Virus record (IMG/VR): IMGVR_UViG_3300032236_000771
Location: 1-64,000 of that record
Direction: 5' to 3' (one strand)
From: a virus
Length of the DNA: 64,000 nt
Position 1 is the stretch's first letter, and every line of letters starts with the position of its first letter. This document shows, piece after piece, positions 6,992 through 32,311 of this stretch. Made by a program: the position numbers and the translations under genes. A model generated the notes under the pieces. The model was not told the DNA's origin. It worked only from the letters and a program-made list of their open reading frames with translations, and ran no database searches.

Positions 6992-7058
6992 AATGACTCT
7001 CCTAAAGTGATGTTTCTATTTTGCCCTGAAAGACGGGCTTTGATTGGGTGAACTGGGG

Positions 7059-7529
7059 CTATCCACCAAGGGCGGTAATCCTAGAACTCAGGGATGCAAT
7101 TTGTGACTGCTGGGTCGCAATCGTATGGGCCATAGCAAGCATTGACGCGGTTACGTCTACTTCAATTGACCCATCTGCGTTTCGTGCCGTAATGATGTAA
7201 CTAGTGATTCCAGATAGTGATTCCCCAGCCGCTAGTTGGCGAAGAAGCAGATTGTTGCCCGGTCCTTGGTTCTTACCAAAAACACCTACCCAAATAGGGA
7301 AGGCAACGTCCCCGCCCTCAAACATGACCCATACGCCTTGACCGACTGCTGGAGCCTTTTGACGACCAGTTGCTGAGAACGATGGCCAAGCCCACTCGGT
7401 TGGTTCCTCGTGGAACAACTGCGGAACCTTGATGCGGATACGGCCGTTATTCTGAGGGTCCTTATTGTCTACGACTATGCCTCGATAGACGCCGTAGGCC
7501 CGCTGAGCCCCAGTGCTATCCTTCAGCAT
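7059..7529 (-). CDS. Baseplate spike, gp5/gpV OB-fold
   Basis: YGVYRGIVVDNKDP...GRIRIKVP...P.VGQGVWVMFEGGD..FPIW.G. Confidence 0.9.
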   Translation of the reverse strand: MLKDSTGAQRAYGVYRGIVVDNKDPQNNGRIRIKVPQLFHEEPTEWAWPSFSATGRQKAPAVGQGVWVMFEGGDVAFPIWVGVFGKNQGPGNNLLLRQLAAGESLSGITSYIITARNADGSIEVDVTASMLAMAHTIATQQSQIASLSSRITALGG

Positions 7530-21835: not shown

Positions 21836-22407
21836 TAGACACTCCTTGGGTCGGGACGGGCAGGCAATGCATATCGCTGGAATTGCGGGTCATTGACCAA
21901 CTCTTCTGGGTTTATCTGGTTGCAATCCACAGTGATTGTGGTCCAGTTGTAAGACAGGGAACCGCGAGGTAGTACTCGAGTAGGCACGAAGACTTCGCCA
22001 CGATAAAGGATGCGGTCTTTGATGTGGTTGTTTGAATCAGTGACCAAGCTAGGAAGTAGACGCTGAACATCGCCAATGTTCATTACAAGACGAAGGGTGT
22101 CAGTTACGTAGAAACCACGCTCGTTCATTACGTTGGTACCACGAACAAACTGTGCCATCAAGGTAGGCATCTTGAACGGGAGCATCCAACGGCGACCATG
22201 GCCAGCAACGCTCGAGGAAACATCGTAGATGTCATCAACAATTGTGTTGAAGTTATCTTCTAGGTAGTAGTCTTGCCAACGGAACCAGTCAACTTCCTGA
22301 CCAACAGTTCCGCCAATTTCTTCGGCAAGGCCTTCATAGATAGACTGAATCTCGTAGTCCAAATCAAACTTGGAGTTACGGTCAGTGCTTTCGTTTCCAC
22401 CACGCAT
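21835..22407 (-). CDS. Putative head-closure/neck protein
   Basis: G..V.W...D.IYD...KDRI.YRG.VF pattern; structural module. Confidence 0.55.
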   Translation of the reverse strand: MRGGNESTDRNSKFDLDYEIQSIYEGLAEEIGGTVGQEVDWFRWQDYYLEDNFNTIVDDIYDVSSSVAGHGRRWMLPFKMPTLMAQFVRGTNVMNERGFYVTDTLRLVMNIGDVQRLLPSLVTDSNNHIKDRILYRGEVFVPTRVLPRGSLSYNWTTITVDCNQINPEELVNDPQFQRYALPARPDPRSV

Positions 22408-23048
22408 TAACTACTCGCCCCCCAATTAGAGCCATTCCAAACATAAACAGGCTTAGTAACCCATGCTGAGCCATTCCAAACCTGTACCGCTTTGGACGCC
22501 CATGAAGTTCCGTTCCAGACCTTTACTCCGCCACCAATAGTCCAAGAAAATGACTGACTAACAGAGCCGTCACCATTAGAGGCAGTAATAGTAAACGAGT
22601 ATGAGCCAGATACTGTGGGGGTTCCAGTGACGGCTCCAGAAGAAGAGTTCAACGAAATACCCGAAGGCAAGGAGCCAGAACTAACCGAGTAACTTGGTGA
22701 ATTAGTTGCGGATACGGAGTCGGAGTAGGCAACGCCAGCAATGGGTGTCGCTAGAGCATTGTCCGACCACGAAGGCGGATAAGTCGGTGGGGGAGCACAG
22801 GCTGGAGAGGTTCCTCCTACATCATAAAAGTCCGTGTAGGTAGTTCCAGATAACTTATAGCTAATGATGTAGGTTTGAGCCGCGTAAGTGCCACAGGCAA
22901 CATGCGTTGCACCAGATTCAACTACAGATGGGCCACTACGGTTTGTAGAGCCAGAAGGGAACACGTAGCCAGGAGCAGTGTAGGAAACGTTATACCCACC
23001 TGAACCATCAGATGAGAAACTTATAGCCCCAGGCGTCCAACCCGACAT
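22407..23048 (-). CDS. Ig-like (He_PIG) virion protein
   Basis: YSVSSGSLPSGISLNSSSG.VTGTPT.SGSYSFTITASN; C-terminal VWNG.W x3. Confidence 0.8.
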   Translation of the reverse strand: MSGWTPGAISFSSDGSGGYNVSYTAPGYVFPSGSTNRSGPSVVESGATHVACGTYAAQTYIISYKLSGTTYTDFYDVGGTSPACAPPPTYPPSWSDNALATPIAGVAYSDSVSATNSPSYSVSSGSLPSGISLNSSSGAVTGTPTVSGSYSFTITASNGDGSVSQSFSWTIGGGVKVWNGTSWASKAVQVWNGSAWVTKPVYVWNGSNWGASS

Positions 23049-23051
23049 TGG

Positions 23052-23612
<561 letters not shown>

Positions 23613-23646: not shown

Positions 23647-24690
23647 TTATGCCTTGTAGAACTCCATGTTTCGGGCTAAACGGTCGTCTTCCGGGTTGAA
23701 GCCTAGGGCTATACCGCCATAGCGATAGGCCGTTTCCTTATTGCCAAGATTGTAGGCGGATATTGCCGCTAGGTCGTATGGAAGTCCGCCCCAAGCAAAC
23801 TCCTCGCAAAGGTAGTCCAAAGGCTTTTCCTCAATGTCGATGGCCTGCAATACCGTCTCTAGGCAGTTAGCCCAATCCTGTTTGGTGTAGTGGTATTGAG
23901 CCATCTCAACTAGGGCCTCACGGCGACCCGGAGCCTCGTTGATTGCCTGCTCCAAATAAAGGTGAGCAAGGTCTGGCAAGCATTTCGCCAGGTATCGACA
24001 AGAAGCAGCCCTCTCTGGACCCCAAGTGGCTTTAGGGTTTTGCAGGTGACGCTTAAACATGTCTGCCGCTTTATCTAACATTCCATGGAAGAAGTACTCG
24101 CGAGCTAGATAGTACTGGTTACGGTCATCGGTCGGGTCTTCTTCAACTGCCAGTTCTAGCAGTGGGAAATACTGGCCACGGCTCTTAGACTCGTCTGGGT
24201 GATGGTGAATCTCAAGAGCAATCCACTCCTGCACCTCTTGGATGCGGTCTGTAGTTAGCGTCTCGTGTACGGGGTGTTTCCATCGGTATCCGTGGCGTTT
24301 GTGAATCTTGTCCCCGCCGTATTGAAGCCCTGGTTGGTTGTCATCAATCCAAGACCAGGTGTATTGGTATCTAGGTCTTGTGGTGTCTGGAGAAACCTTT
24401 TCCAACGCTTCACGCCAGCCAGGAACAAGGACCTCATCCATGTCCAAAGCAATGCAAAAATCGATATCATCAGGAAGCAAAGCGAGGCTAGTATTCCTAG
24501 CGTCGTCGAAACGCCAAGGATTAATAGAAGCAGAAAAAACCTCAACACCGCACTCGTAAGCCCTATCAATAGTGCTATCGGTAGAACCAGTATCGAGAAT
24601 AAGGCGGTAGTCTGCCTCTTTGCAAGACTCTGCCCATCTTGCCACATGTTGTTCTTCATTTTTCGCAATTGCATAAACCGCTACTTTCAT
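23647..24690 (-). CDS. GT2-family glycosyltransferase with TPR-like C-terminus
   Basis: KNEE, DTGSTD, FDDARN, LDMDE, HE; YYLAREY; start reassigned to MKVAVY. Confidence 0.9.
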   Translation of the reverse strand: MKVAVYAIAKNEEQHVARWAESCKEADYRLILDTGSTDSTIDRAYECGVEVFSASINPWRFDDARNTSLALLPDDIDFCIALDMDEVLVPGWREALEKVSPDTTRPRYQYTWSWIDDNQPGLQYGGDKIHKRHGYRWKHPVHETLTTDRIQEVQEWIALEIHHHPDESKSRGQYFPLLELAVEEDPTDDRNQYYLAREYFFHGMLDKAADMFKRHLQNPKATWGPERAASCRYLAKCLPDLAHLYLEQAINEAPGRREALVEMAQYHYTKQDWANCLETVLQAIDIEEKPLDYLCEEFAWGGLPYDLAAISAYNLGNKETAYRYGGIALGFNPEDDRLARNMEFYKA

Positions 24691-24932
24691 TCTTCGGTGA
24701 AACCTACTCCTGAAGTATCTACTGCATCCCACTTGTGCACAGGGCAAAAGGCGTGAGGAAGTCCAGTCTTAGCGGGCATAATGCAACCGCATTTAGTGCA
24801 CTGCTGAGTTAGCGAGATGAAGAACTCGCACTCACGGCAGATAGCCATACGAGATTCTTTGACTGATTCGCCTACTCGGCCAATGTTGCGGTTGAAGAGG
24901 TCCCAAGGCCTGGCTGGTTTAGGGTCATTCAT
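24687..24932 (-). CDS. Small Cys-rich protein
   Basis: CRECE...CTKCGC.M..K......CP..KW. Confidence 0.8.
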   Translation of the reverse strand: MNDPKPARPWDLFNRNIGRVGESVKESRMAICRECEFFISLTQQCTKCGCIMPAKTGLPHAFCPVHKWDAVDTSGVGFTEE

Positions 24933-25891
24933 CGGTAGTCCTTCGGCATGTAGAACGGGGAGATAGCCCCAAAGCGTACGTTAGTTCTAGTGTAAACCTC
25001 GTAGGCATGAATTGCGTCAGCATTTTCTGGGTCATTGATGAACTTTGTGTAATGAGCCTGAAGTCGGGATGTAATCTGGTCGTTCAACTCAGGAGTTACG
25101 TAGTCAGTAAAGAACATACGCTTGCCTCCGTACTCATTGATGTCGTCCGCATTTAGGTGGGTAATAGGGAACACGTCGCAGTTCGGATAAACAAACGAGA
25201 AGCCACGACCAAATAGGCTAATAGAGTAGATGAGGTCTTCATCATAAAACGTGGCATCTGGGTCCACGCCAGTATCCTTGGCCCACTCACGGTCGCCAAA
25301 AGCACAGGCAGGATTGAACTTTACGTTAGGGTAATACTTATTTGGGTATTTACCTGGCCAGAGCTCATTGAGCGGAAAGTCGCCCCATCGAGGCACTGCG
25401 TACAGCCATAACTCATTTGGAAGGTAGAACGGGTAAGCGTTTCGTTCCTTGCCCTCACGAGGCTTGCGTTCCGGGTGGTACTTAAACAGGCCCACATAGG
25501 TAGTCATAATGGTTTTAGGATTGCCCGACGCTTCCTTGGCCCCCTTATAGAGGTCAATCATGTCCACGTCCCAGCCCTGAGCTAGGTGGGTGTGGCAGTC
25601 AATCTGAAGCATGTAGTCCTCGTCCTCATACAGACGAGCGGCTCTCCAGCGGCCCTTACCAACGCCCAATGGCTCTAAGTCGTTCCGCTGAATCTCCTCG
25701 TAGGTAATACGGAGCCTAGGGTCGTCTCCGTAGAACTCCTTGAGTTCGTTGTAAATAGACGGCTCTAGGGCGGCTAGGCCAACTCCCACAACAACACGCT
25801 CTGGGTGAGTTGCTGCGTCAAAACAGTTCTTGACCGTAGGTACGACTTCGCTGTCGTCCATAGCGGCAATTGAAACAAAGATAGTTTCCAT
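24929..25891 (-). CDS. GlcNAc-transferase-like (GT60 / Skp1-GlcNAcT family) glycosyltransferase
   Basis: IFVSIAA..D.E...T, A..P.R...G, G.G..R..A..LY..E.Y.LQID.HT...GWD. Confidence 0.8.
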   Translation of the reverse strand: METIFVSIAAMDDSEVVPTVKNCFDAATHPERVVVGVGLAALEPSIYNELKEFYGDDPRLRITYEEIQRNDLEPLGVGKGRWRAARLYEDEDYMLQIDCHTHLAQGWDVDMIDLYKGAKEASGNPKTIMTTYVGLFKYHPERKPREGKERNAYPFYLPNELWLYAVPRWGDFPLNELWPGKYPNKYYPNVKFNPACAFGDREWAKDTGVDPDATFYDEDLIYSISLFGRGFSFVYPNCDVFPITHLNADDINEYGGKRMFFTDYVTPELNDQITSRLQAHYTKFINDPENADAIHAYEVYTRTNVRFGAISPFYMPKDYR

Positions 25892-26547
25892 TATGAGTAC
25901 CGCTTCCTGCTCCACCATTTACGTTTGTACCACGCATACGGAGGCATTTCAACCTCGTACGACTTCGGGTAGAAGTGGGTGTGGTCCTCGTCAATTACAG
26001 ACTCCCAGTCGTCTCGCTTAAATGGGATTATCTGAATAAGCGGAGTACCTGCTGGGATTACACCCTTAAAGTCTCGCTTGAGAATAAAAGGGAAGTTGAT
26101 TACTACTGGGTGCTTATCGGTGTCTACTACACCGCTAAACGAATAAAACGGCAAGTTAGGGCTGTTGAGCGGGTGGATAAACAAGCAACTGTACCCCTTA
26201 GGGGTCTTAATGTGCCACTGGTTAATCCACTTGTGAGGAATAGCGGAAAAGCCCTCAGGGACTTCCATGCCGTCAGTCTGCGAGGTGTGGTGCCGAGACA
26301 CTACTTCAATCTCAGAGTGCGTTGGCTTAAACGTAACCCAGTCTGGGTCCCACTCCACGTCTACTGGAAGTGTAATGATGTAGCCGCTAGTTAGAGCGTC
26401 TAGGAATGGCACACACTTCTTTACAGAGTGAATTTTCTCTTGGGTGCCGTCCATCTTTCGATACCAGTCAGGAACAGCCCTACTGGCCGGGATTGGTTTG
26501 GGGATGTTTACAGCCGCATTAGTTGTTTGAAACTTTATTTTCTTCAT
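25891..26547 (-). CDS. DUF6065-like / dUTPase-fold-like protein, paralog A
   Basis: P.WY, KKCVPFLDA..SGY, W.IKTP.GYS.LF.HP.N, SGVVDTD, GTP..Q.IPFKR. Confidence 0.7.
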   Translation of the reverse strand: MKKIKFQTTNAAVNIPKPIPASRAVPDWYRKMDGTQEKIHSVKKCVPFLDALTSGYIITLPVDVEWDPDWVTFKPTHSEIEVVSRHHTSQTDGMEVPEGFSAIPHKWINQWHIKTPKGYSCLFIHPLNSPNLPFYSFSGVVDTDKHPVVINFPFILKRDFKGVIPAGTPLIQIIPFKRDDWESVIDEDHTHFYPKSYEVEMPPYAWYKRKWWSRKRYS

Positions 26548-26926
26548 CTGGGTCCTTGAATCCTTCGTCGTTGTAAATCCAATTTAGTGTCGGTTTCTTG
26601 TCGGTATCCTTTACCAAAACAAACTGCGGATGGCTTAGGAGCAAGGCAGCCATGCGGTTCTCTGCCCTAATTACCTCCTGCACAACGCCATCCAGAACTA
26701 TGGCAATCGTGTTTATTTGGCCGTGGCTAGGCATAGCTGGCGTTGCGGCAGCGTGAGTATGTGACGGTGCTCGCTTTGAGGTTACGCCAAGCTTCTTCTG
26801 CAACCAGTTGCGGAGAAGCTCACGAGTGGTAATTACTATCGGGTCATGGTCGTGGCTGTGCTCTCCGCCGCCGTGGTCGTGCCCGTGGTCATGGTCGTGT
26901 GAGTGGTCGTGGTCGTGGTCAGTCAT
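26519..26926 (-). CDS. His-rich N-terminus protein
   Basis: MTDHDHDHSHDHDHGHDHGGGEHSHDHD. Confidence 0.75.
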   Translation of the reverse strand: MTDHDHDHSHDHDHGHDHGGGEHSHDHDPIVITTRELLRNWLQKKLGVTSKRAPSHTHAAATPAMPSHGQINTIAIVLDGVVQEVIRAENRMAALLLSHPQFVLVKDTDKKPTLNWIYNDEGFKDPDEENKVSNN

Positions 26927-27615
26927 TATTTAAACTCTTTTCTTTGCCACAGGGCACTCTTGTACGAGCGTCCCTTACGTCTAACATTCCAGCCCTGAGA
27001 CATAATCTTGTCAATTAGGGATTGGTCGATAATCCTTGCCCACTTCTCCCGCTTGTACGGGATTATCTGGATGTATGGCGTTCCCGCTGGAATTACGCCA
27101 GTAAAATCTTCACGAATAAAGAACGGCACATTGCCAGGAGCGGCGAACTTATCGGCGTCAATGATGCCTGCCAAGGTGGTAAACGGAAGGTCTTGGCGGT
27201 TTAGCGGGTGGCACATAATCGCACTGTAACCACGAGGAAGTTTAAACCCCCATGCCGAGGACCAGACCAAGTGGTTGTGAGAATGCCCAGCAGGTCTAGG
27301 CATCTTCTCCCCAAGTGCCATGGGACGTTCACCAATAAAGCTGGCGTACTCTGGGGGGCCGTCCCACTTAAGGTCCAGCGTCCCGTCTTTCTTTTTAGAT
27401 ACGTAAATATCAAACGGGGTAACCAGAGTATAGCCCGCAACAAGGGCATCTAGATACGGAGCACATTTCTTCAGGCCAGCCGATTCTTGACCGTGCTCAT
27501 TTAGGTAAGTGCTCTCAGAAAGGCGATACCATTCGGGCATGGTTTCTTTGATTGCCCTTGGCTGCCCTAAATCAGAGAAGTTCAACTTATCGGTGACGAA
27601 TTTAATGAGCCGCAT
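26926..27615 (-). CDS. DUF6065-like / dUTPase-fold-like protein, paralog B
   Basis: PEWY, KKCAPYLDA..AGY, W...LP.GYS....HP.N, GIIDAD, GTP..Q.IPYKR. Confidence 0.7.
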   Translation of the reverse strand: MRLIKFVTDKLNFSDLGQPRAIKETMPEWYRLSESTYLNEHGQESAGLKKCAPYLDALVAGYTLVTPFDIYVSKKKDGTLDLKWDGPPEYASFIGERPMALGEKMPRPAGHSHNHLVWSSAWGFKLPRGYSAIMCHPLNRQDLPFTTLAGIIDADKFAAPGNVPFFIREDFTGVIPAGTPYIQIIPYKREKWARIIDQSLIDKIMSQGWNVRRKGRSYKSALWQRKEFK

Positions 27616-27626
27616 TAGAGTCCTAA

Positions 27627-28688
27627 TTAACTGATGGTGATATCCCCAATTGTACTGCCTTGGTTGTAATTAGTAGGGGTAACTACAATTCCGTATTTAG
27701 GAGTAAGGGCAACGCCAGTCGGGGTGTAGACCCAGTCAGAGTCAATCTGAGTTACCTGGTTGGTATCTGAGTAAGCCTTGGTAGTAATCTGCGAACCGCT
27801 AGTGGTGATGCGAAGTGACTGAGCTACAGCCGAAATAGCCTGGCTTGCAATTTGGGTTACAGTGTTAGCCACTGACTGGTACAAGCGAATGTACGCAGGG
27901 TAAGTAGTCACAGGGTTGCAGGCGTAGGTGTAGGCGAAATAAGCGTTGCAGTTTGAGCCTGAAAAGTTAGTGTACGCATTGCAGTTGCTCGTTCCGCCGC
28001 TGCAGTTGTAGTACAAATAGCCACCTGAATTACAGACTGCGTTATAGCTATACGCAACACAGGTTGCCGCATTCCAAGACGAGCAATACGTGGCATACCA
28101 AGAAGAGCAGTATGTCGCATACCAAGATTTACAAGTCTTACCAGAGTTATATGCAGAACATCCACCGCCCGAGTATCCTGAGCAGCCTCCACCAGCATAG
28201 GTGGCACAGTTAGAGGTATTAAATGTGTTGCAGGACGCTACGTAGTATACGTTGCCTAGGGTGCAGGCTGCAGTGTAGGTGTTGCACGTAAAGCTATACG
28301 CGTTGCAGTTAGAGCCAGAATAGTTGGTATAGGCATTGCAGTTAGAGGCGTTGCAAGTGCTGTACGTAGTCAGCGTTTCCTGGTCAACTGCAATAGCCCA
28401 CCAGTTACCTGAGTCAGTTACCCAGAGGCCCGCACCAGTTCCATTAGCCGTGCTAAGCAGGTCAATCTGCACGTTCTGCTTAGGCATGCCCACCGTGGCC
28501 AATGGGTACGACGATGGCGAAGTAGAGCTAGAAGCGGCGTTGCCAGAGATGCCCCAAGTACCACGAAGAACATCCCAAGTAGAGCCGTCGCTGGCGGTGC
28601 CTAGAACGCTGGCATTATCCGCACGGTTAAAGGTGTCCTTAAACTTCTTGCGAACGCCAGACGCAATCGAGCCAATATTAATTCTCAT
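27627..28688 (-). CDS. Beta-sandwich virion protein with 18-Cys insert (putative fibre tip)
   Basis: DTFNRAD...LG....W....GTWGISGN.A N-terminus; Cys-periodic insert; TAATG-coupled to the fibre gene. Confidence 0.75.
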   Translation of the reverse strand: MRINIGSIASGVRKKFKDTFNRADNASVLGTASDGSTWDVLRGTWGISGNAASSSTSPSSYPLATVGMPKQNVQIDLLSTANGTGAGLWVTDSGNWWAIAVDQETLTTYSTCNASNCNAYTNYSGSNCNAYSFTCNTYTAACTLGNVYYVASCNTFNTSNCATYAGGGCSGYSGGGCSAYNSGKTCKSWYATYCSSWYATYCSSWNAATCVAYSYNAVCNSGGYLYYNCSGGTSNCNAYTNFSGSNCNAYFAYTYACNPVTTYPAYIRLYQSVANTVTQIASQAISAVAQSLRITTSGSQITTKAYSDTNQVTQIDSDWVYTPTGVALTPKYGIVVTPTNYNQGSTIGDITIS

Positions 28689-31600
28689 TATGCAGTCAGG
28701 TCTCCCGATACTACCCAAGTGTCAGTAGCAATCTTTACCAGCGATACTAGAGACCACTGAGCACGAAGCTTTAGGCCCGGTGTGCCATTTACAGTTACGC
28801 CAGAGCCAGCCACAATCGTGGTCTGTCCAGCACCATACTGAAGCACGGTCAAAGTAGTGCCGATGGCAAATGCCACTGAGGAGTTTGGTGGCACGGTTAG
28901 GTTGTTTGCCGAAGCAACGTTCATCTGAACCAGCACGTTCTTGTCGCTTAGCACCAAGGTGTACGACGAGGTCTGAGCGTTGATGCTAGTGACAGTGGGG
29001 GCATCTGCACCAGTTGGACCTGTGGGTCCCGTAGGTCCAGTTACCGCAGGCCCTGTAGGGCCAGTAGGACCAGTTACGGTAGATGCCGCACCAGTCGGTC
29101 CAGTAGGACCAGTTCCAGTGGTCATCAAGGCAGCCGAGAAGTATGTTCCCTGACTGCTGCTACCGCCATACTGAAGCGTTTGCGAAGTCGGGTTACCTGT
29201 GTAAGCGGTGAAGTCTACGTAGTCGGTTGAGCCGTTTAGGTAAACCAACTTGGTGACGTTTTGCGAGTAAGCATTACCAGACAAGGTCTGAGTCTGGTCA
29301 ATGGCGAACGTGCTGCCATTCTTACGCAACTGGATGTTGTTCTGGTTGTTAGTGACCGAAGCAACCGCCCACCATGCTTGGAGGGTAACCTCGTAGTAGC
29401 CAGCGTAAAGCGGAGTGAACTTCTTAGTCGAAGCGTTCCACCAAGAGTTAGGGTCAAAGTCAGCCACAAATGGGATGACCAAGTCTGAGCCATTAGTAAC
29501 CGTCTGGTCACCAGTCAACTTACCCTGAGTAACGGTGTTAGTTGCAGAGATGTTAGCACTTGGACCAGTAGGGCCTGTTGGTCCAGTCGGACCCGTAGCC
29601 CCAGTAGGACCAGTTCCACCGTTGTTTCCTGGAACACCTTGAGGACCAGTTGGACCTGTTGGACCTGTCGGACCAGTAGCACCAGTAAGGCCAGTGGCAC
29701 CAGTAGGCCCAGTTACCGTAGAGGCGGCTCCCGTAGCACCAGTAGGGCCAGTCGGGCCAGTTGGGCCAGTTGGGCCAGTAGCTCCTGTTGGGCCAGTGGC
29801 ACCGTTATTTCCAGCGGTTCCTTGGATACCCTGAGAACCCTGAGCACCCTGCGGCCCTGTCGGTCCAGTAGGTCCCTGAGCCCCTGTAGGGCCCGTAGGG
29901 CCAGTTACAGTCGAAGCGGCACCAGTGGCACCAGTTGGACCAGTAGGCCCTGTAGGACCCTGTGAGCCCGTGCTACCAGTAGGACCAGTGGCACCAGTTG
30001 GTCCAAGTTGGGTGTACATAACCTGAGTAGCGGTTACGATAACACCAGGGGTTGCTGGGGTAGTTGGAGTAGTTCCAGCGGCAATAGTCTCAATAGATAA
30101 AGAAGTAGACTCTGCCTGCCACCAGAACTCAATGTAGTCATTAGCCGCAACGGTAAAGACAAAGTTCACGGTCTCAAGCATCTGACCGTTAATTCCACCG
30201 TGGGAGTTAGGGACAGTCAACTGGCTGCCTGAATAAGGCATGTCTGTGCCGTTCTTACGCAGCCACAAGTTGGCGTTGGCAATTGACGATGAAGTGTTGA
30301 CCAACTGAACCGAGATGGTGACGCTATAGGTTCCAGCGTGTTGGAAAGTTAGGCGACCAGCAGCGTCGTTCGCTACACCATTGGCCTCGTAGGTGTTGTT
30401 GATGTCTACGAGGTAGGCAGTGGTGGTGCTTGAGATGTTCTGGGTGGTGGTGTTGTAGAACGAGCCGTAGTAACCCAGGGCACCGCCAGCACCAGTGGCA
30501 CCAGTAGGACCGACAATCTGGCCTACGTTGTTCCAAGTAGAGCCGTTCCAGACATAAAGGTCGCTGTTCGACTGAACGATGTAAGCATCGTTAACCGAGT
30601 TGCCAGAGCCTGGCAAGTTAACTGGGGCTGCTACTGAGCCCTTCAAGTTGATTGAGGTACCCTGCGGACCCGTTGGTCCAGTTGGGCCCTGCGGACCCGT
30701 TACGTTAGACGCAGCACCAGTTGGGCCAGTTGCTCCCGTTGCACCTGTAGGTCCCTGAGGGCCTGTGGCTCCAGTTGCTCCAGTAGCACCAGTTGGGCCA
30801 GTAGCACCCGTCGCTCCCGCATTGCCCTGAGTACCCTGCGGACCCTGTGGGCCTGTGTCTCCTTGTGGGCCAGTTGGGCCTGTGTTTCCACGAGGGCCAG
30901 TGGCACCAGCTGGACCAGTGGCACCTGTCGCACCAGTAGGTCCAGTTGCTCCGTTAGAACCAGCAGGTCCAGTTGCTCCAGTAGGGCCAGTAGGGCCTGA
31001 GCCAGCAGGGACGTTGACCCACGCCTGAAGTCCCGCATCAAACGCAATAACATCGCCATCGGCAAGAGTTAGTGGGTCTACAAGGAGGTCACGAAGTTCC
31101 TCAAGAGTAGGGAGGAACTTAGGGTAAACAAATACCTGACCAGCGGTGGCATCCTGGAAAAGGCACACGCCGATTGGGGTACCGAAGTAAACGCCCGTAG
31201 GGTAGTCGGTAGTAAGTTGGCCGTCATCGTAGGTGAAGACAACTTGCCCTTCAACTAGGGACGAGGTGTCTAGGCCGTGGACAACGCCGTAGGTGGTTAC
31301 GTAGCCTAGTTCACCCGCAAGGATGTCCTGAGTAAGAATGCCCAAGAAGCGTTCGGCAGAGCCGTCATTGGTATCGGTAACGTGGTCAACAACAAGGTTA
31401 TCGTTGTCTGAGCCTGTTACATAAACGGCACGACCGTTAAGAAGAGTGTGGCCCGCACCATTCTTTACAAGCTGGTTTAGTTCTTGGCCAATTTGCAAGT
31501 TAGCGTTGCCGTTAAGCATCTGGAACTCAAGAGTTCCAACCTGGGCATTCCAAGCCAACTGACCCGGCTGCTGTGAACGGTAGTCACTGTCTACAGCCAT

Positions 31601-32311
31601 AGATAGACGTGTAAAGGCATCAGTGCCGTCTAGAAGGGCAGAAGTATTGGCATCGCTTCCAGAAGGACCAGTGTCGCCCTGAGGCCCCGTAGGACCCAAA
31701 TCTCCTTGAGGACCAGTAGGTCCAGTATCGCCTTGTGGTCCAGTAGGACCGAGGTCTCCCTGAGGGCCCGTAGGTCCTTGAGAGCCCGCTTCACCAGCAG
31801 GCCCCGTAGGTCCTTCCGAACCGTTCTCGCCAGCAGGACCAGTCGGTCCTGTAGGCCCAGTGTCGCCTTGAGGACCAAGGCTTCCTTGAGGTCCAGTAGG
31901 TCCCTGGTCTCCTCGCTCACCAGCAGGTCCAGTTGGGCCAGTTGGGCCCGCAGGTCCAGTTGGACCAGTAGGACCAGTCGCACCAGTAGGTAGCGGGATA
32001 GTGTTCTGTACCCAACCACCGTCTGCATACGTGTAGATGTAGACGATGGTCGGGTCAGTAGAGAGAACAAATGCCCACTGCTGTGGCTGAAGTCCGCTAG
32101 GGAATCCTGACTCTAGGTCAGACAGCGATGGGTAGGTGCCAGCGAACTGGGCAGGGTGTCCCTCTGCACCAGTTCGTGGCGACCAGGTAGAGCCATCGTA
32201 AACATACACAACTTCGTCATTAGTATTGAAAAAGAGGTCGCCAGTGTGGCCCACCGACGGCAGCGTACTGCCAGTCGGTAGACCTACTGGGGTGAGAAAT
32301 TTTCTAGACAA
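28688..32311 (-). CDS. Long collagen-like fibre with C1q/BclA-C-like domains
   Basis: Several (GPT/GAT/GPQ)n blocks; AGTYSV and AGYYEV beta-sandwiches. Confidence 0.9.

Follow-up and report, generated by a model that had tools for sequence, protein, structure and literature searches.

A candidate cysteine-laddered hairpin in a lectin-like protein encoded behind the collagen-like fibre of an uncultured pond myovirus

How a viral protein made in a reducing cytoplasm might use eighteen closely spaced cysteines is the question raised by a gene of the IMG/VR virus record IMGVR_UViG_3300032236_000771. We analysed positions 1 to 64,000 of this record (the window, 64,000 nucleotides in all), which are part of a sequence of 85,557 bp that is 89% complete. 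The gene encodes a protein of 353 residues, here called the ladder protein, and all of its cysteines lie in a central insert that a preliminary description, made from the sequence alone, took for an antiparallel hairpin with cross-strand links, inserted in the beta-sandwich of a fibre tip. Our answer, which we hold to be rather probable and well short of certain, is that the ladder protein is a distal accessory or adhesin subunit of the collagen-like fibre of a pond myovirus, made up of a lectin sandwich and a nine-rung, likely disulfide-linked, antiparallel hairpin. Coordinates of the features are collected in Table 1.

The minus-strand translation of the insert has 146 residues, with a cysteine at both ends and 18 in total, and the remaining 207 residues of the protein, its two flanks, have none. 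Cysteine makes up 12.3% of the insert against 0.42% (50 cysteines in 11,893 residues) of the 33 other open reading frames (ORFs) of the window, a clustering far above chance. These 33 minus-strand ORFs of the virion module are poor in cysteine, 12 of them having none at all, so that the insert and a six-Cys protein discussed below stand out. The spacers between successive cysteines are 4,10,6,6,10,7,7,7,8,7,7,7,8,9,6,10,9, exactly as first listed. Folded at the loop C177-SAYNSGKT-C186, between the ninth and tenth cysteines, the insert pairs its spacers as the preliminary description had written, and the positions of Cys k and Cys 19-k add up to 369, 364, 364, 364, 361, 363, 363, 363 and 363, a near-constant antiparallel register. 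That description had also placed the Gly-rich rungs ATYAGGG and SGYSGGG opposite the aromatic rungs SSWYATY and KSWYATY, and had seen SNCNAYTN(Y/F)SGSNCNAY on both arms. Both observations were confirmed in this protein, the latter motif matching a 48-nt direct DNA repeat of 85% identity, but the facing of Gly-rich and aromatic rungs does not hold as a rule for the family. A C-x-x-aromatic pattern occurs in 13 of the 17 rungs. The insert contains five N-x-S/T triplets, no His, Asp or Glu, and only two Lys, one within the tip loop and the other right after C186. Inverted DNA repeats were considered as the origin of the symmetry and dropped, as none was found within 27600-28720.

The behaviour of the cysteines across the family carries most of the argument. 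A word-indexed search gave 156 homologues of the ladder protein, and 120 listed homologues plus the query formed a first symmetry sample (n=121). An exhaustive search of 1.84 billion cluster representatives gave 610 at E<=0.001, 249 at E<=1e-10 and 58 at E<=1e-30; a less redundant sample was made of the best 150 representatives of 50%-identity clusters, 139 of which were kept after 11 shorter than 255 aa were dropped. The cysteine count is even in 119 of the 121 sequences of the first sample and in 116 of the 118 Cys-bearing representatives of the second, where the exceptions are P0254 (17) and P0216 (9, its extra cysteine lying 112 residues N-terminal of the others). Counts among the representatives span 4 to 46; 63 of them are 2 mod 4 and 53 are 0 mod 4, which points to the cysteine pair, not the tetrad, as the unit. 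Against shuffled spacers, the mirror symmetry is significant at p<=0.01 in 94 of the 121 sequences, and among the 118 representatives at p<=0.05 in 81 and at p<=0.01 in 61. Compared with a direct-repeat arrangement, the mirror arrangement is the better one in 114 sequences of the first sample (equal in 1, worse in 6) and in 102 of the second (8 ties, 8 worse). Outer spacers that are not periodic are also matched, as in [1,36,4,8,4,7,4,7,15,7,4,8,4,7,4,41,2], [1,68,7,6,7,7,13,7,7,6,7,64,2], [1,2,2,7,91,15,91,7,7,1,2] and [11x6,17,11x6]. Among the more regular relatives, P0103 has 32 cysteines with 4-residue spacers and P0276 has 11-residue spacers. Mirror symmetry is thus strong across the family and is convincing only there, not in the query alone, and the family data support a putative intramolecular antiparallel hairpin with nine paired cysteines.

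Relatives that differ in length should tell whether the two arms change together. In the close-clade alignment, rungs change SYMMETRICALLY in the clade of the query. Between the four 18-Cys proteins (the query and P0002-P0004) and the eight 16-Cys proteins (P0005-P0012) the difference is a pair of gaps of 8 residues, one per arm, which remove CATYAGGG (rung C161-C169) from the left arm and SWYATYCS (rung C194-C202) from the right. Under the hairpin pairing these are exactly facing rungs, and they are the Gly-rich/aromatic pair of the preliminary description. P0014 (14 Cys) shows one more gap on each arm; P0060 (12 Cys) has lost, relative to P0058 (14 Cys), one cysteine per arm at mirror positions, spacers 14+12 becoming 27 and 17+13 becoming 31; and P0088 (18 Cys) has an additional (6,8) spacer pair on each arm. 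The right-arm gain coincides with a 24-nt tandem duplication, one copy of which is missing in the 16-Cys relatives, so rungs seem to arise by local 8-codon duplications that are matched on the other arm. Asymmetric indels among homologues had been named at the outset as the outcome that would speak against the hairpin; what was found is the loss of facing rungs, beside the even counts given above, and the hairpin was not refuted.

All cysteine columns are conserved among the 18- and 16-Cys members, and the tip motif C-x-x-[YW]-[NF]-x-G-[KR]-[TN]-C is kept in the close clade. Identities to the query over N flank, insert and C flank are 89/75/91% for P0003, 92/73/91% for P0004, 77/45/89% for P0005 and 66/35/80% for P0010, and the insert is accordingly judged to evolve faster than the flanks in the close clade. 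P0002 is a mosaic (75/99/100%). Part of the window recurs in pond-metagenome runs from two further studies (2019, 2020), and the phage is met in three studies of pond metagenomes dated 2019-2022. Pond variants were read from Logan contigs of three pond runs. In these contigs the ladder differs at just 4 listed positions within 27918-28355, positions 28451-28672 (the first ~79 residues) are replaced by 217 unlike letters, and the adjoining C-terminus of the fibre (28672-28804) has 27 differences in 133. The mosaic contigs date from 2019-2020, with the recombination breakpoint inside the N-terminal half of the lectin. The N-terminal piece and the fibre end appear to have been exchanged together, which is a hint, from one lineage only, that the two dock.

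Further information on the flanks was obtained from a model of the ladder protein calculated with AlphaFold2 (AF2) from a 67-sequence alignment. The predicted local distance difference test (pLDDT) score ranges from 87 to 97 over residues 11-110 and is 96-97 over residues 261-353, with >90 as the general level of the two flanks (residues ~10-110 and 250-353); residues 5-12 form a short N-terminal helix, and paired long strands (106-117, 120-135 and 138-143 with 224-229, 232-247 and 250-262) exit the sandwich. An exhaustive structural search with VIA placed the carbohydrate-binding module (CBM) CBM66 at the top (4b1m_A, Z 16.3, root-mean-square deviation 2.6, 147 aligned residues), and also found a baseplate chain of mycobacteriophage Douge (8zdo_a, Z 15.7) and the receptor-binding domain of TM4 gp23 (9n6a_A, Z 14.9). 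Legume-type lectins, ERGIC-53/VIP36 and the CBM2 of phage J-1 Dit (Z 11.8) fall in the Z range 10.9-12.5, and the 126 chains at Z>=8 are mostly lectins, CBMs and GH43 C-domains. Foldseek gave weaker matches to the PDB (best E 3.8e-3), and in BFVD six uncharacterised 'uncultured Caudovirales phage' relatives came first, followed by actinophage minor tail proteins and DUF7257. The two flanks are therefore predicted to form one concanavalin A (ConA)-like lectin beta-sandwich, with the ladder as an insertion within it. Since the flanks make one domain, the ends of the insert must sit side by side. The insertion in a beta-sandwich that the preliminary description had proposed is thus borne out by the model of the flanks and by the CBM66 match, and its straight needle found no support in the prediction.

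The gene order ties the ladder protein to the fibre, as had been assumed from the start. The ladder-gene ATG shares one base with the TAA of the fibre gene (TAATG), which ends ...GCATAATG..., and this overlap with the upstream stop favours the ATG at 28688 as the start. The listed ORF, 27627-28718, begins at a TTG and has a 19th cysteine in its first 10 residues, which drops out if the ATG is, as is likely, the true start. A C-terminal domain of the fibre type stops within ~40 nt of the start of the ladder gene in 63 of the 77 loci with >=500 nt upstream (a hand count from the table; a narrower automatic window counted 39). A complex prediction with three copies of the C-terminal 120 aa of the fibre and one ladder protein scored 0.53 (runs 0.44, 0.57 and 0.53) against 0.01 for the best of 3 controls and weakly supports a contact. 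The runs share >=88% of their contacts, with a partner pLDDT >=79. Among 80 solved complexes 58 attain this mark, as do 2 of 110 mismatched pairs, but at <=0.60 only 7 of those 80 do so, together with both mismatches; with its custom alignments and 3+1 design, the job differs from the calibration of the tool.

We propose that the ~111 N-terminal and ~96 C-terminal residues fold into a single sandwich of the ConA/CBM66 type. The chain would leave between two strands of the sandwich, run out for ~65 residues (C112 to C177), turn at the conserved YNSGK tip and return antiparallel, a register that sets Cys k opposite Cys 19-k. We infer that the facing cysteines most likely form disulfides. The nine pairs would be oxidised either in oxic water after lysis or with the aid of the six-Cys DUF6171-like protein, stapling the arms into a stiff, protease- and shear-resistant projection. 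Tandem duplications and deletions of 8 codons, required on both arms, would add or remove rungs, and the projection could act as a length-adjustable, fast-evolving probe that most plausibly presents or spaces a host-binding surface. If fully extended, ~65 residues per arm might reach up to roughly 20 nm, a length for or against which AF2 says nothing. In an ideal ribbon the C-x-x-aromatic pattern would place aromatics opposite the disulfides and, speculatively, these might pack on another copy or coil the ribbon. The ladder had been called odd for a protein made in a reducing cytoplasm; this is softened by the virion disulfides documented for cyanophage Pam3 (PMC9942802), and the six-Cys gene with which the ladder travels may also bear on it.

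This six-Cys gene lies in the cassette downstream of the ladder gene. Its 81-aa product falls slightly short of the Pfam cut-off for PF19668 (24.9 bits where 27 are required, E 2.8e-5). In the Atlas, the three closest clusters displayed and 27 of 30 feature hits are viral DUF6171 clusters, with scores of 0.93, and a search of PDB sequences gave nothing significant. The alignment of its homologues keeps RPWD and C-x-x-C ... Q-C-x-x-C-G-C ... C-P-x-x-K-W. In a first set of 57 loci, of which 5 were dropped because they end too early or have no C flank, a six-Cys homologue was found downstream in 49 of 49 loci with a Cys-bearing insert and in 0 of 3 with a Cys-free one. When Cys-free relatives were made the target of another scan, 21 complete loci were obtained whose inserts have 0-1 Cys, the same 3 contigs among them; the six-Cys gene is in the cassette behind the lectin gene in 0 of these 21, and 18 have no copy within 8 kb. 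Of the other three, L075 has its sole copy directly after a second, 16-Cys paralogue of the ladder family, an arrangement that argues against shared ancestry as the whole cause of the association between DUF6171 and cysteines, and L064 and L067 have it two genes past a 6-Cys protein, itself encoded behind a C-terminal domain of the fibre type. Six loci (L012, L017, L018, L022, L024, L042) have the DUF6171-like domain joined to the C-terminal end of a glycosyltransferase of the N-acetylglucosamine (GlcNAc) type; the fusion ORFs have a His-rich linker before the DUF6171-like end and in most of the six loci lie at ~8.8-10.3 kb. The six-Cys gene may bear on the handling of the ladder cysteines, and its strict co-occurrence makes it a candidate for how phage virion proteins become oxidised. 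Large DNA viruses encode sulfhydryl oxidases, to which a cysteine helper of phages would be analogous. A wider proposal would be an undescribed architecture, a disulfide stalk of 2-23 rungs with its length set by matched 8-codon duplications and a dedicated six-Cys helper that installs, guards or proof-reads the disulfides; taken as a whole, we rate it as unlikely.

Disulfides are not the only use to which facing cysteines could be put. They might be metal ligands, forming a row of thiolate sites (two-coordinate Cu(I), or bridged Zn or Fe) loaded via the His/Asp-rich and DUF6171-like proteins of the cassette. Such sites would sidestep the oxidation of 18 thiols in a reducing cytoplasm, the His/Asp-rich protein is encoded two genes downstream of the ladder gene, with homologues in 35 of 57 loci, the His/Asp tract has a weak, sub-threshold likeness to Ni/Co transporter loops (NCBIfam, E 0.0027), and the CxxC...CxxC of the six-Cys protein resembles zinc ribbons. 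The His-rich gene is, however, missing in 22 of the 57 loci, most of which (20) still have Cys-bearing ladders. The 63 of 118 representatives with counts of 2 mod 4 fit poorly with Cys4 sites, the insert has no His, Asp or Glu to complete sites, and we know of no precedent for linear two-thiolate sites repeated 9 to 23 times; metal binding thus seems very unlikely to us. The cassette could also be read as modifying the cysteines covalently (thioether, or S-/O-glycosylation near Cys), giving a stalk that is glycan-decorated or like the ribosomally synthesised and post-translationally modified peptides. Two DUF6065 genes, a PF11397 transferase, a GT2-TPR gene and the DUF6171-like gene form a conserved cassette, and both the six fusions with a glycosyltransferase and the five N-x-S/T triplets would suit this idea. 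Yet modification of single cysteines would need neither even counts nor mirror spacing, the DUF6065 genes, of dUTPase fold, also stand behind Cys-free inserts (21 of 21) and are not Cys-specific, the GlcNAc transferase is present in only 21 of 57 loci and in 3 of the 21 Cys-free loci, and no radical-SAM, lanthipeptide or other Cys-modifying family was found among the neighbours scanned. We see a slim chance, at best, for this explanation.

It is also conceivable that the cysteines pair locally, with neighbours or in short knots, and that the apparent mirror pattern came about as a side effect when repeats were duplicated in a Cys-rich domain, solenoid-like or globular. Both arms share a directional motif, the C-x-x-aromatic pattern, as well as direct DNA repeats; alternating repeats produce patterns that are both mirror- and shift-symmetric; and neither the symmetry of the query alone nor AF2, which leaves the centre of the insert unmodelled, speaks against local pairs. 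Across the family, however, the mirror arrangement outperforms the direct repeat (114 of 121 sequences in the first sample, 102 of 118 in the second), non-periodic outer spacers match across the fold (36/41, 68/64, 91/91 and 13,7,[17],7,13), indels occur as facing pairs, and the ends of the insert must meet, the flanks being one domain. Local pairing is in our opinion most improbable. Should the hairpin and its links be as described, the protein might still serve the fibre, or a head-proximal whisker, as a structural strut, spacer or redox-sensitive latch instead of being a receptor-binding tip. The fibre genes stand between head and sheath genes and not at the baseplate, the collagen-like fibre carries its own globular C-terminal domain, and the tip loop is conserved, not hypervariable. 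On the other hand, tip adhesins are usually encoded last, after the fibre gene, the ConA/CBM fold is found in phage receptor-binding heads such as those of TM4 gp23 and J-1 Dit CBM2, and no part of the protein evolves faster than the arms, as expected of a host-facing surface. A latch would have a parallel in Pam3, where reduction of virion disulfides frees the fibres and triggers contraction (PMC9942802). We regard such a role as distinctly unlikely.

Several findings weigh against the disulfide-linked hairpin as an adhesin, or qualify it. The spacer symmetry of the query itself is not significant (its asymmetry is 10, where shuffles average 15.0; p=0.084, 2000 shuffles), the weak value being due to most spacers falling in 6-10. 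The AF2 model has pLDDT <50 for residues 137-229 and neither confirms nor denies the central ladder, and the picture of a straight ribbon is drawn from sequence symmetry alone. Among the 118 representatives, 37 fail to reach mirror symmetry at p<=0.05. In some of these the spacers are uniform and the symmetry test is powerless; others, among them P0204, P0259, P0287 and P0298, look truly asymmetric and could have other topologies. Odd counts exist (P0024 and P0038 with 21 Cys, P0254 with 17), and P0024 and P0038 each are without one 6-spacer on a single arm, relative to P0020. Inserts of similar or greater length without any cysteine are present in 21 of the 139 representatives, so cysteines are dispensable for some form of projection. 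The sampled members are phylogenetically related, and the counts are not independent events. As the Cys-free loci are mostly one subfamily (WVQSSxDWW motif), part of the DUF6171 association could be due to clade membership. Lastly, no Erv/ALR, DsbA or thioredoxin match was found in the 85.5-kb record (89% complete). The only thiol-redox family found there is a glutaredoxin (PF00462, E 1.2e-12), encoded outside the window at G000:C1:69522-69683 on the minus strand; the idea of a phage-encoded oxidation machine was dropped after the scans for Erv/ALR, thioredoxin, DsbA and glutaredoxin had given nothing else.

Some relatives deserve a description of their own. The Cys-free inserts (P0206, P0211, P0224, P0256, P0284 and others) consist of 100-300 residues of short repeats rich in Tyr, Thr, Ser, Asn and Gly, and other relatives have repeat arms of equal length (91/91) with few cysteines that clamp the base and the tip. 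From both kinds it would follow that a two-armed projection occurs without a full ladder.

We next compare the ladder protein with known systems. Cystine-ladder hairpins such as the theta-defensins and peptides of the protegrin/tachyplesin type have antiparallel strands with parallel cross-strand disulfides, which gives the same mirror-symmetric cysteine pattern. These peptides have ~18 residues and 2-3 rungs one residue apart, and theta-defensins are cyclic. The ladder protein shares their pattern of cysteines, even in number and mirror-symmetric, with pair sums of 361-369 and with the family counts given above, and with the caveat of p=0.084 in the query. It differs in having 9 rungs (2 to 23 across the family), spacers of 4-10 residues and a 146-residue insertion in a 353-aa protein in place of a small free peptide, and no homology is implied. 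The receptor-binding heads of phages (TM4 gp23, 9n6a; Douge, 8zdo/8zdp; J-1 Dit CBM2, 5ly8) and CBM66 (4b1m) have the same beta-sandwich as the flanks, with the Z scores reported above. ConA-like heads are likewise encoded in the fibre or tail module, and the ladder protein matches them by fold, not by detectable sequence; compared by titles, no match points to a long Cys-laddered insertion.

With the adhesins of the T-even/S16 gp38 type and with Pam3 gp24, the ladder protein has in common a small gene of its own immediately behind that of the fibre and a conserved scaffold with fast-evolving segments rich in Gly, Tyr, Ser and Asn. The gp38-type proteins have a polyglycine-II lattice, in contrast to the ConA-like sandwich of the ladder protein, which varies in a two-armed Cys-rich loop, and no sequence similarity was found. 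Glycine-rich motif lattices of Pam3 gp24 and S16 gp38 are described in the Pam3 paper (PMC9942802). The same paper reports that the fibres of this cyanophage are disulfide-linked to the wedge and are freed by dithiothreitol (DTT), as verified by mass spectrometry and DTT treatment. To that extent Pam3 is a precedent for virion proteins that are made in a reducing cytoplasm and bear functional disulfides; there, a few inter-subunit bonds fix the fibres to the wedge, whereas the ladder proposed here is long and intramolecular. A search of the literature, mostly titles and abstracts, found no description of a cysteine or disulfide ladder in phages and no paper naming DUF6171, and the matches listed for cystine ladders were not about phages.

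Regarding the genomic setting, the PHROG matches in the record comprise terminase, portal, a head-decoration-like protein, tail sheath, a tape-measure-like protein with a peptidase domain and baseplate wedge. On the strength of these matches, the virus is classified here as a myovirus. The collagen-like fibre and ladder genes are placed between the head genes and the sheath gene. The ladder protein matched no family in Pfam (E<=0.1), PHROGs (E<=0.01) or NCBIfam (E<=0.1); tblastn and megablast against 50,697 deposited phage records gave no match, to which the low-complexity filter may contribute; and the family profile found nothing below E 0.95 among PDB sequences. All 10 homologues looked up by cluster are named 'hypothetical protein'.

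Table 1. Position of the ladder gene, its parts and its neighbours in the window
Feature	Positions	Strand	Remarks
Ladder gene, 353-aa lectin-plus-ladder protein	27630..28688	-	stop codon 27627-29; homologues known
N-terminal half of the predicted ConA/CBM66-like beta-sandwich, residues 1-111	28356..28688	-	AF2, VIA
18-Cys insert, residues 112-257, two eight-rung arms and tip loop	27918..28355	-	
Tip loop C177-SAYNSGKT-C186 of the insert	28131..28160	-	
C-terminal half of the predicted beta-sandwich, residues 258-353	27630..27917	-	AF2 pLDDT 96-97; 65-100% identical in close clade
48-nt direct repeat copy, right arm, encodes SNCNAYTNFSGSNCNAY	27939..27986		85% identity
48-nt direct repeat copy, left arm, encodes SNCNAYTNYSGSNCNAY	28296..28343		85% identity
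Tandem 24-nt duplication, two C(K/S)SWYATY rungs of the right arm	28069..28116		79% identity
Upstream gene of the 1207-aa collagen-like fibre	28688..32311	-	Pfam Collagen E 1.2e-47; PHROG tail fibre families
Conserved C-terminal domain of the fibre, last 120 residues	28691-29050	-	
DUF6065/phrog_7084 protein a, predicted dUTPase-like fold, directly downstream of the ladder gene	26926..27615	-	
135-aa protein with N-terminal His/Asp-rich tract (~28 residues)	26519..26926	-	
DUF6065/phrog_7084 protein b, paralogue of a	25891..26547	-	33% identical to a
PF11397 GlcNAc-type glycosyltransferase	24929-25918	-	E 1.4e-21
81-aa six-Cys protein, DUF6171-like	24687..24932	-	CxxC...QCxxCGC...CPxxKW
GT2-like/TPR protein, same cassette	23647-24747	-	

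The most constant neighbour of the ladder gene is a DUF6065 gene, which begins <=400 nt past the ladder-gene stop in 69 of 74 loci and <=1200 nt past it in 72 of 74, behind Cys-bearing and Cys-free inserts alike. The AF2 model of DUF6065 protein a has a pLDDT of 88.1. All 22 VIA rows at Z>=5 are dUTPases, dCTP deaminases or viral dUTPase-like proteins (top 3h6x_A, Z 8.5), the next unrelated rows being at Z 4.5 and 3.4; Foldseek gave 2yzj_A (E 3.3e-4), and PDB sequences gave nothing significant. Protein a is predicted to have the beta-barrel fold of dUTPases and dCTP deaminases, and because of this fold it does not look like an obvious redox enzyme. An identity as a cupin or 2-oxoglutarate oxygenase was rejected on the same ground. 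Invariant residues of DUF6065 include K49, C51, P53, W122, P137, N139 and D155, and H136 and D153 are nearly invariant. In L003, an 86-aa ORF at 7057-7317 lies between the ladder gene and the gene of DUF6065 protein a, as in other loci, and by eye resembles the C-terminal part of the 135-aa His/Asp-rich protein. Glycosylation of the fibre is possible, judging by the GlcNAc-type transferase of the cassette and the N-x-S/T triplets of the insert. Elsewhere in the window, a 186-aa protein at 23052-23612 (minus strand) has a weak match, below the cut-off, to Mtd_N, the N-terminal domain of the major tropism determinant (E 1.8e-5), followed by collagen repeats (E 2.8e-12), and the next gene, at 22407-23048, encodes an Ig-like (He_PIG) protein; the pair looks like a second small fibre.

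In summary, the host range of phages is determined mainly by their receptor-binding proteins, for which few scaffolds are known. The family described here, at least 610 clusters at 50% identity in which every name seen is 'hypothetical protein', would add a conserved lectin base with a fast-evolving projection, the length of which changes in discrete paired steps and the register of which is fixed by cysteines. If the facing cysteines do form disulfides, the ladder would far exceed all known cystine ladders in length and be a natural model for stapled beta-ribbons, and it would raise the question of how and where phage virion proteins are oxidised. If the six-Cys protein were indeed a dedicated helper, tailed phages would possess a cysteine-handling factor of their own for virion proteins.

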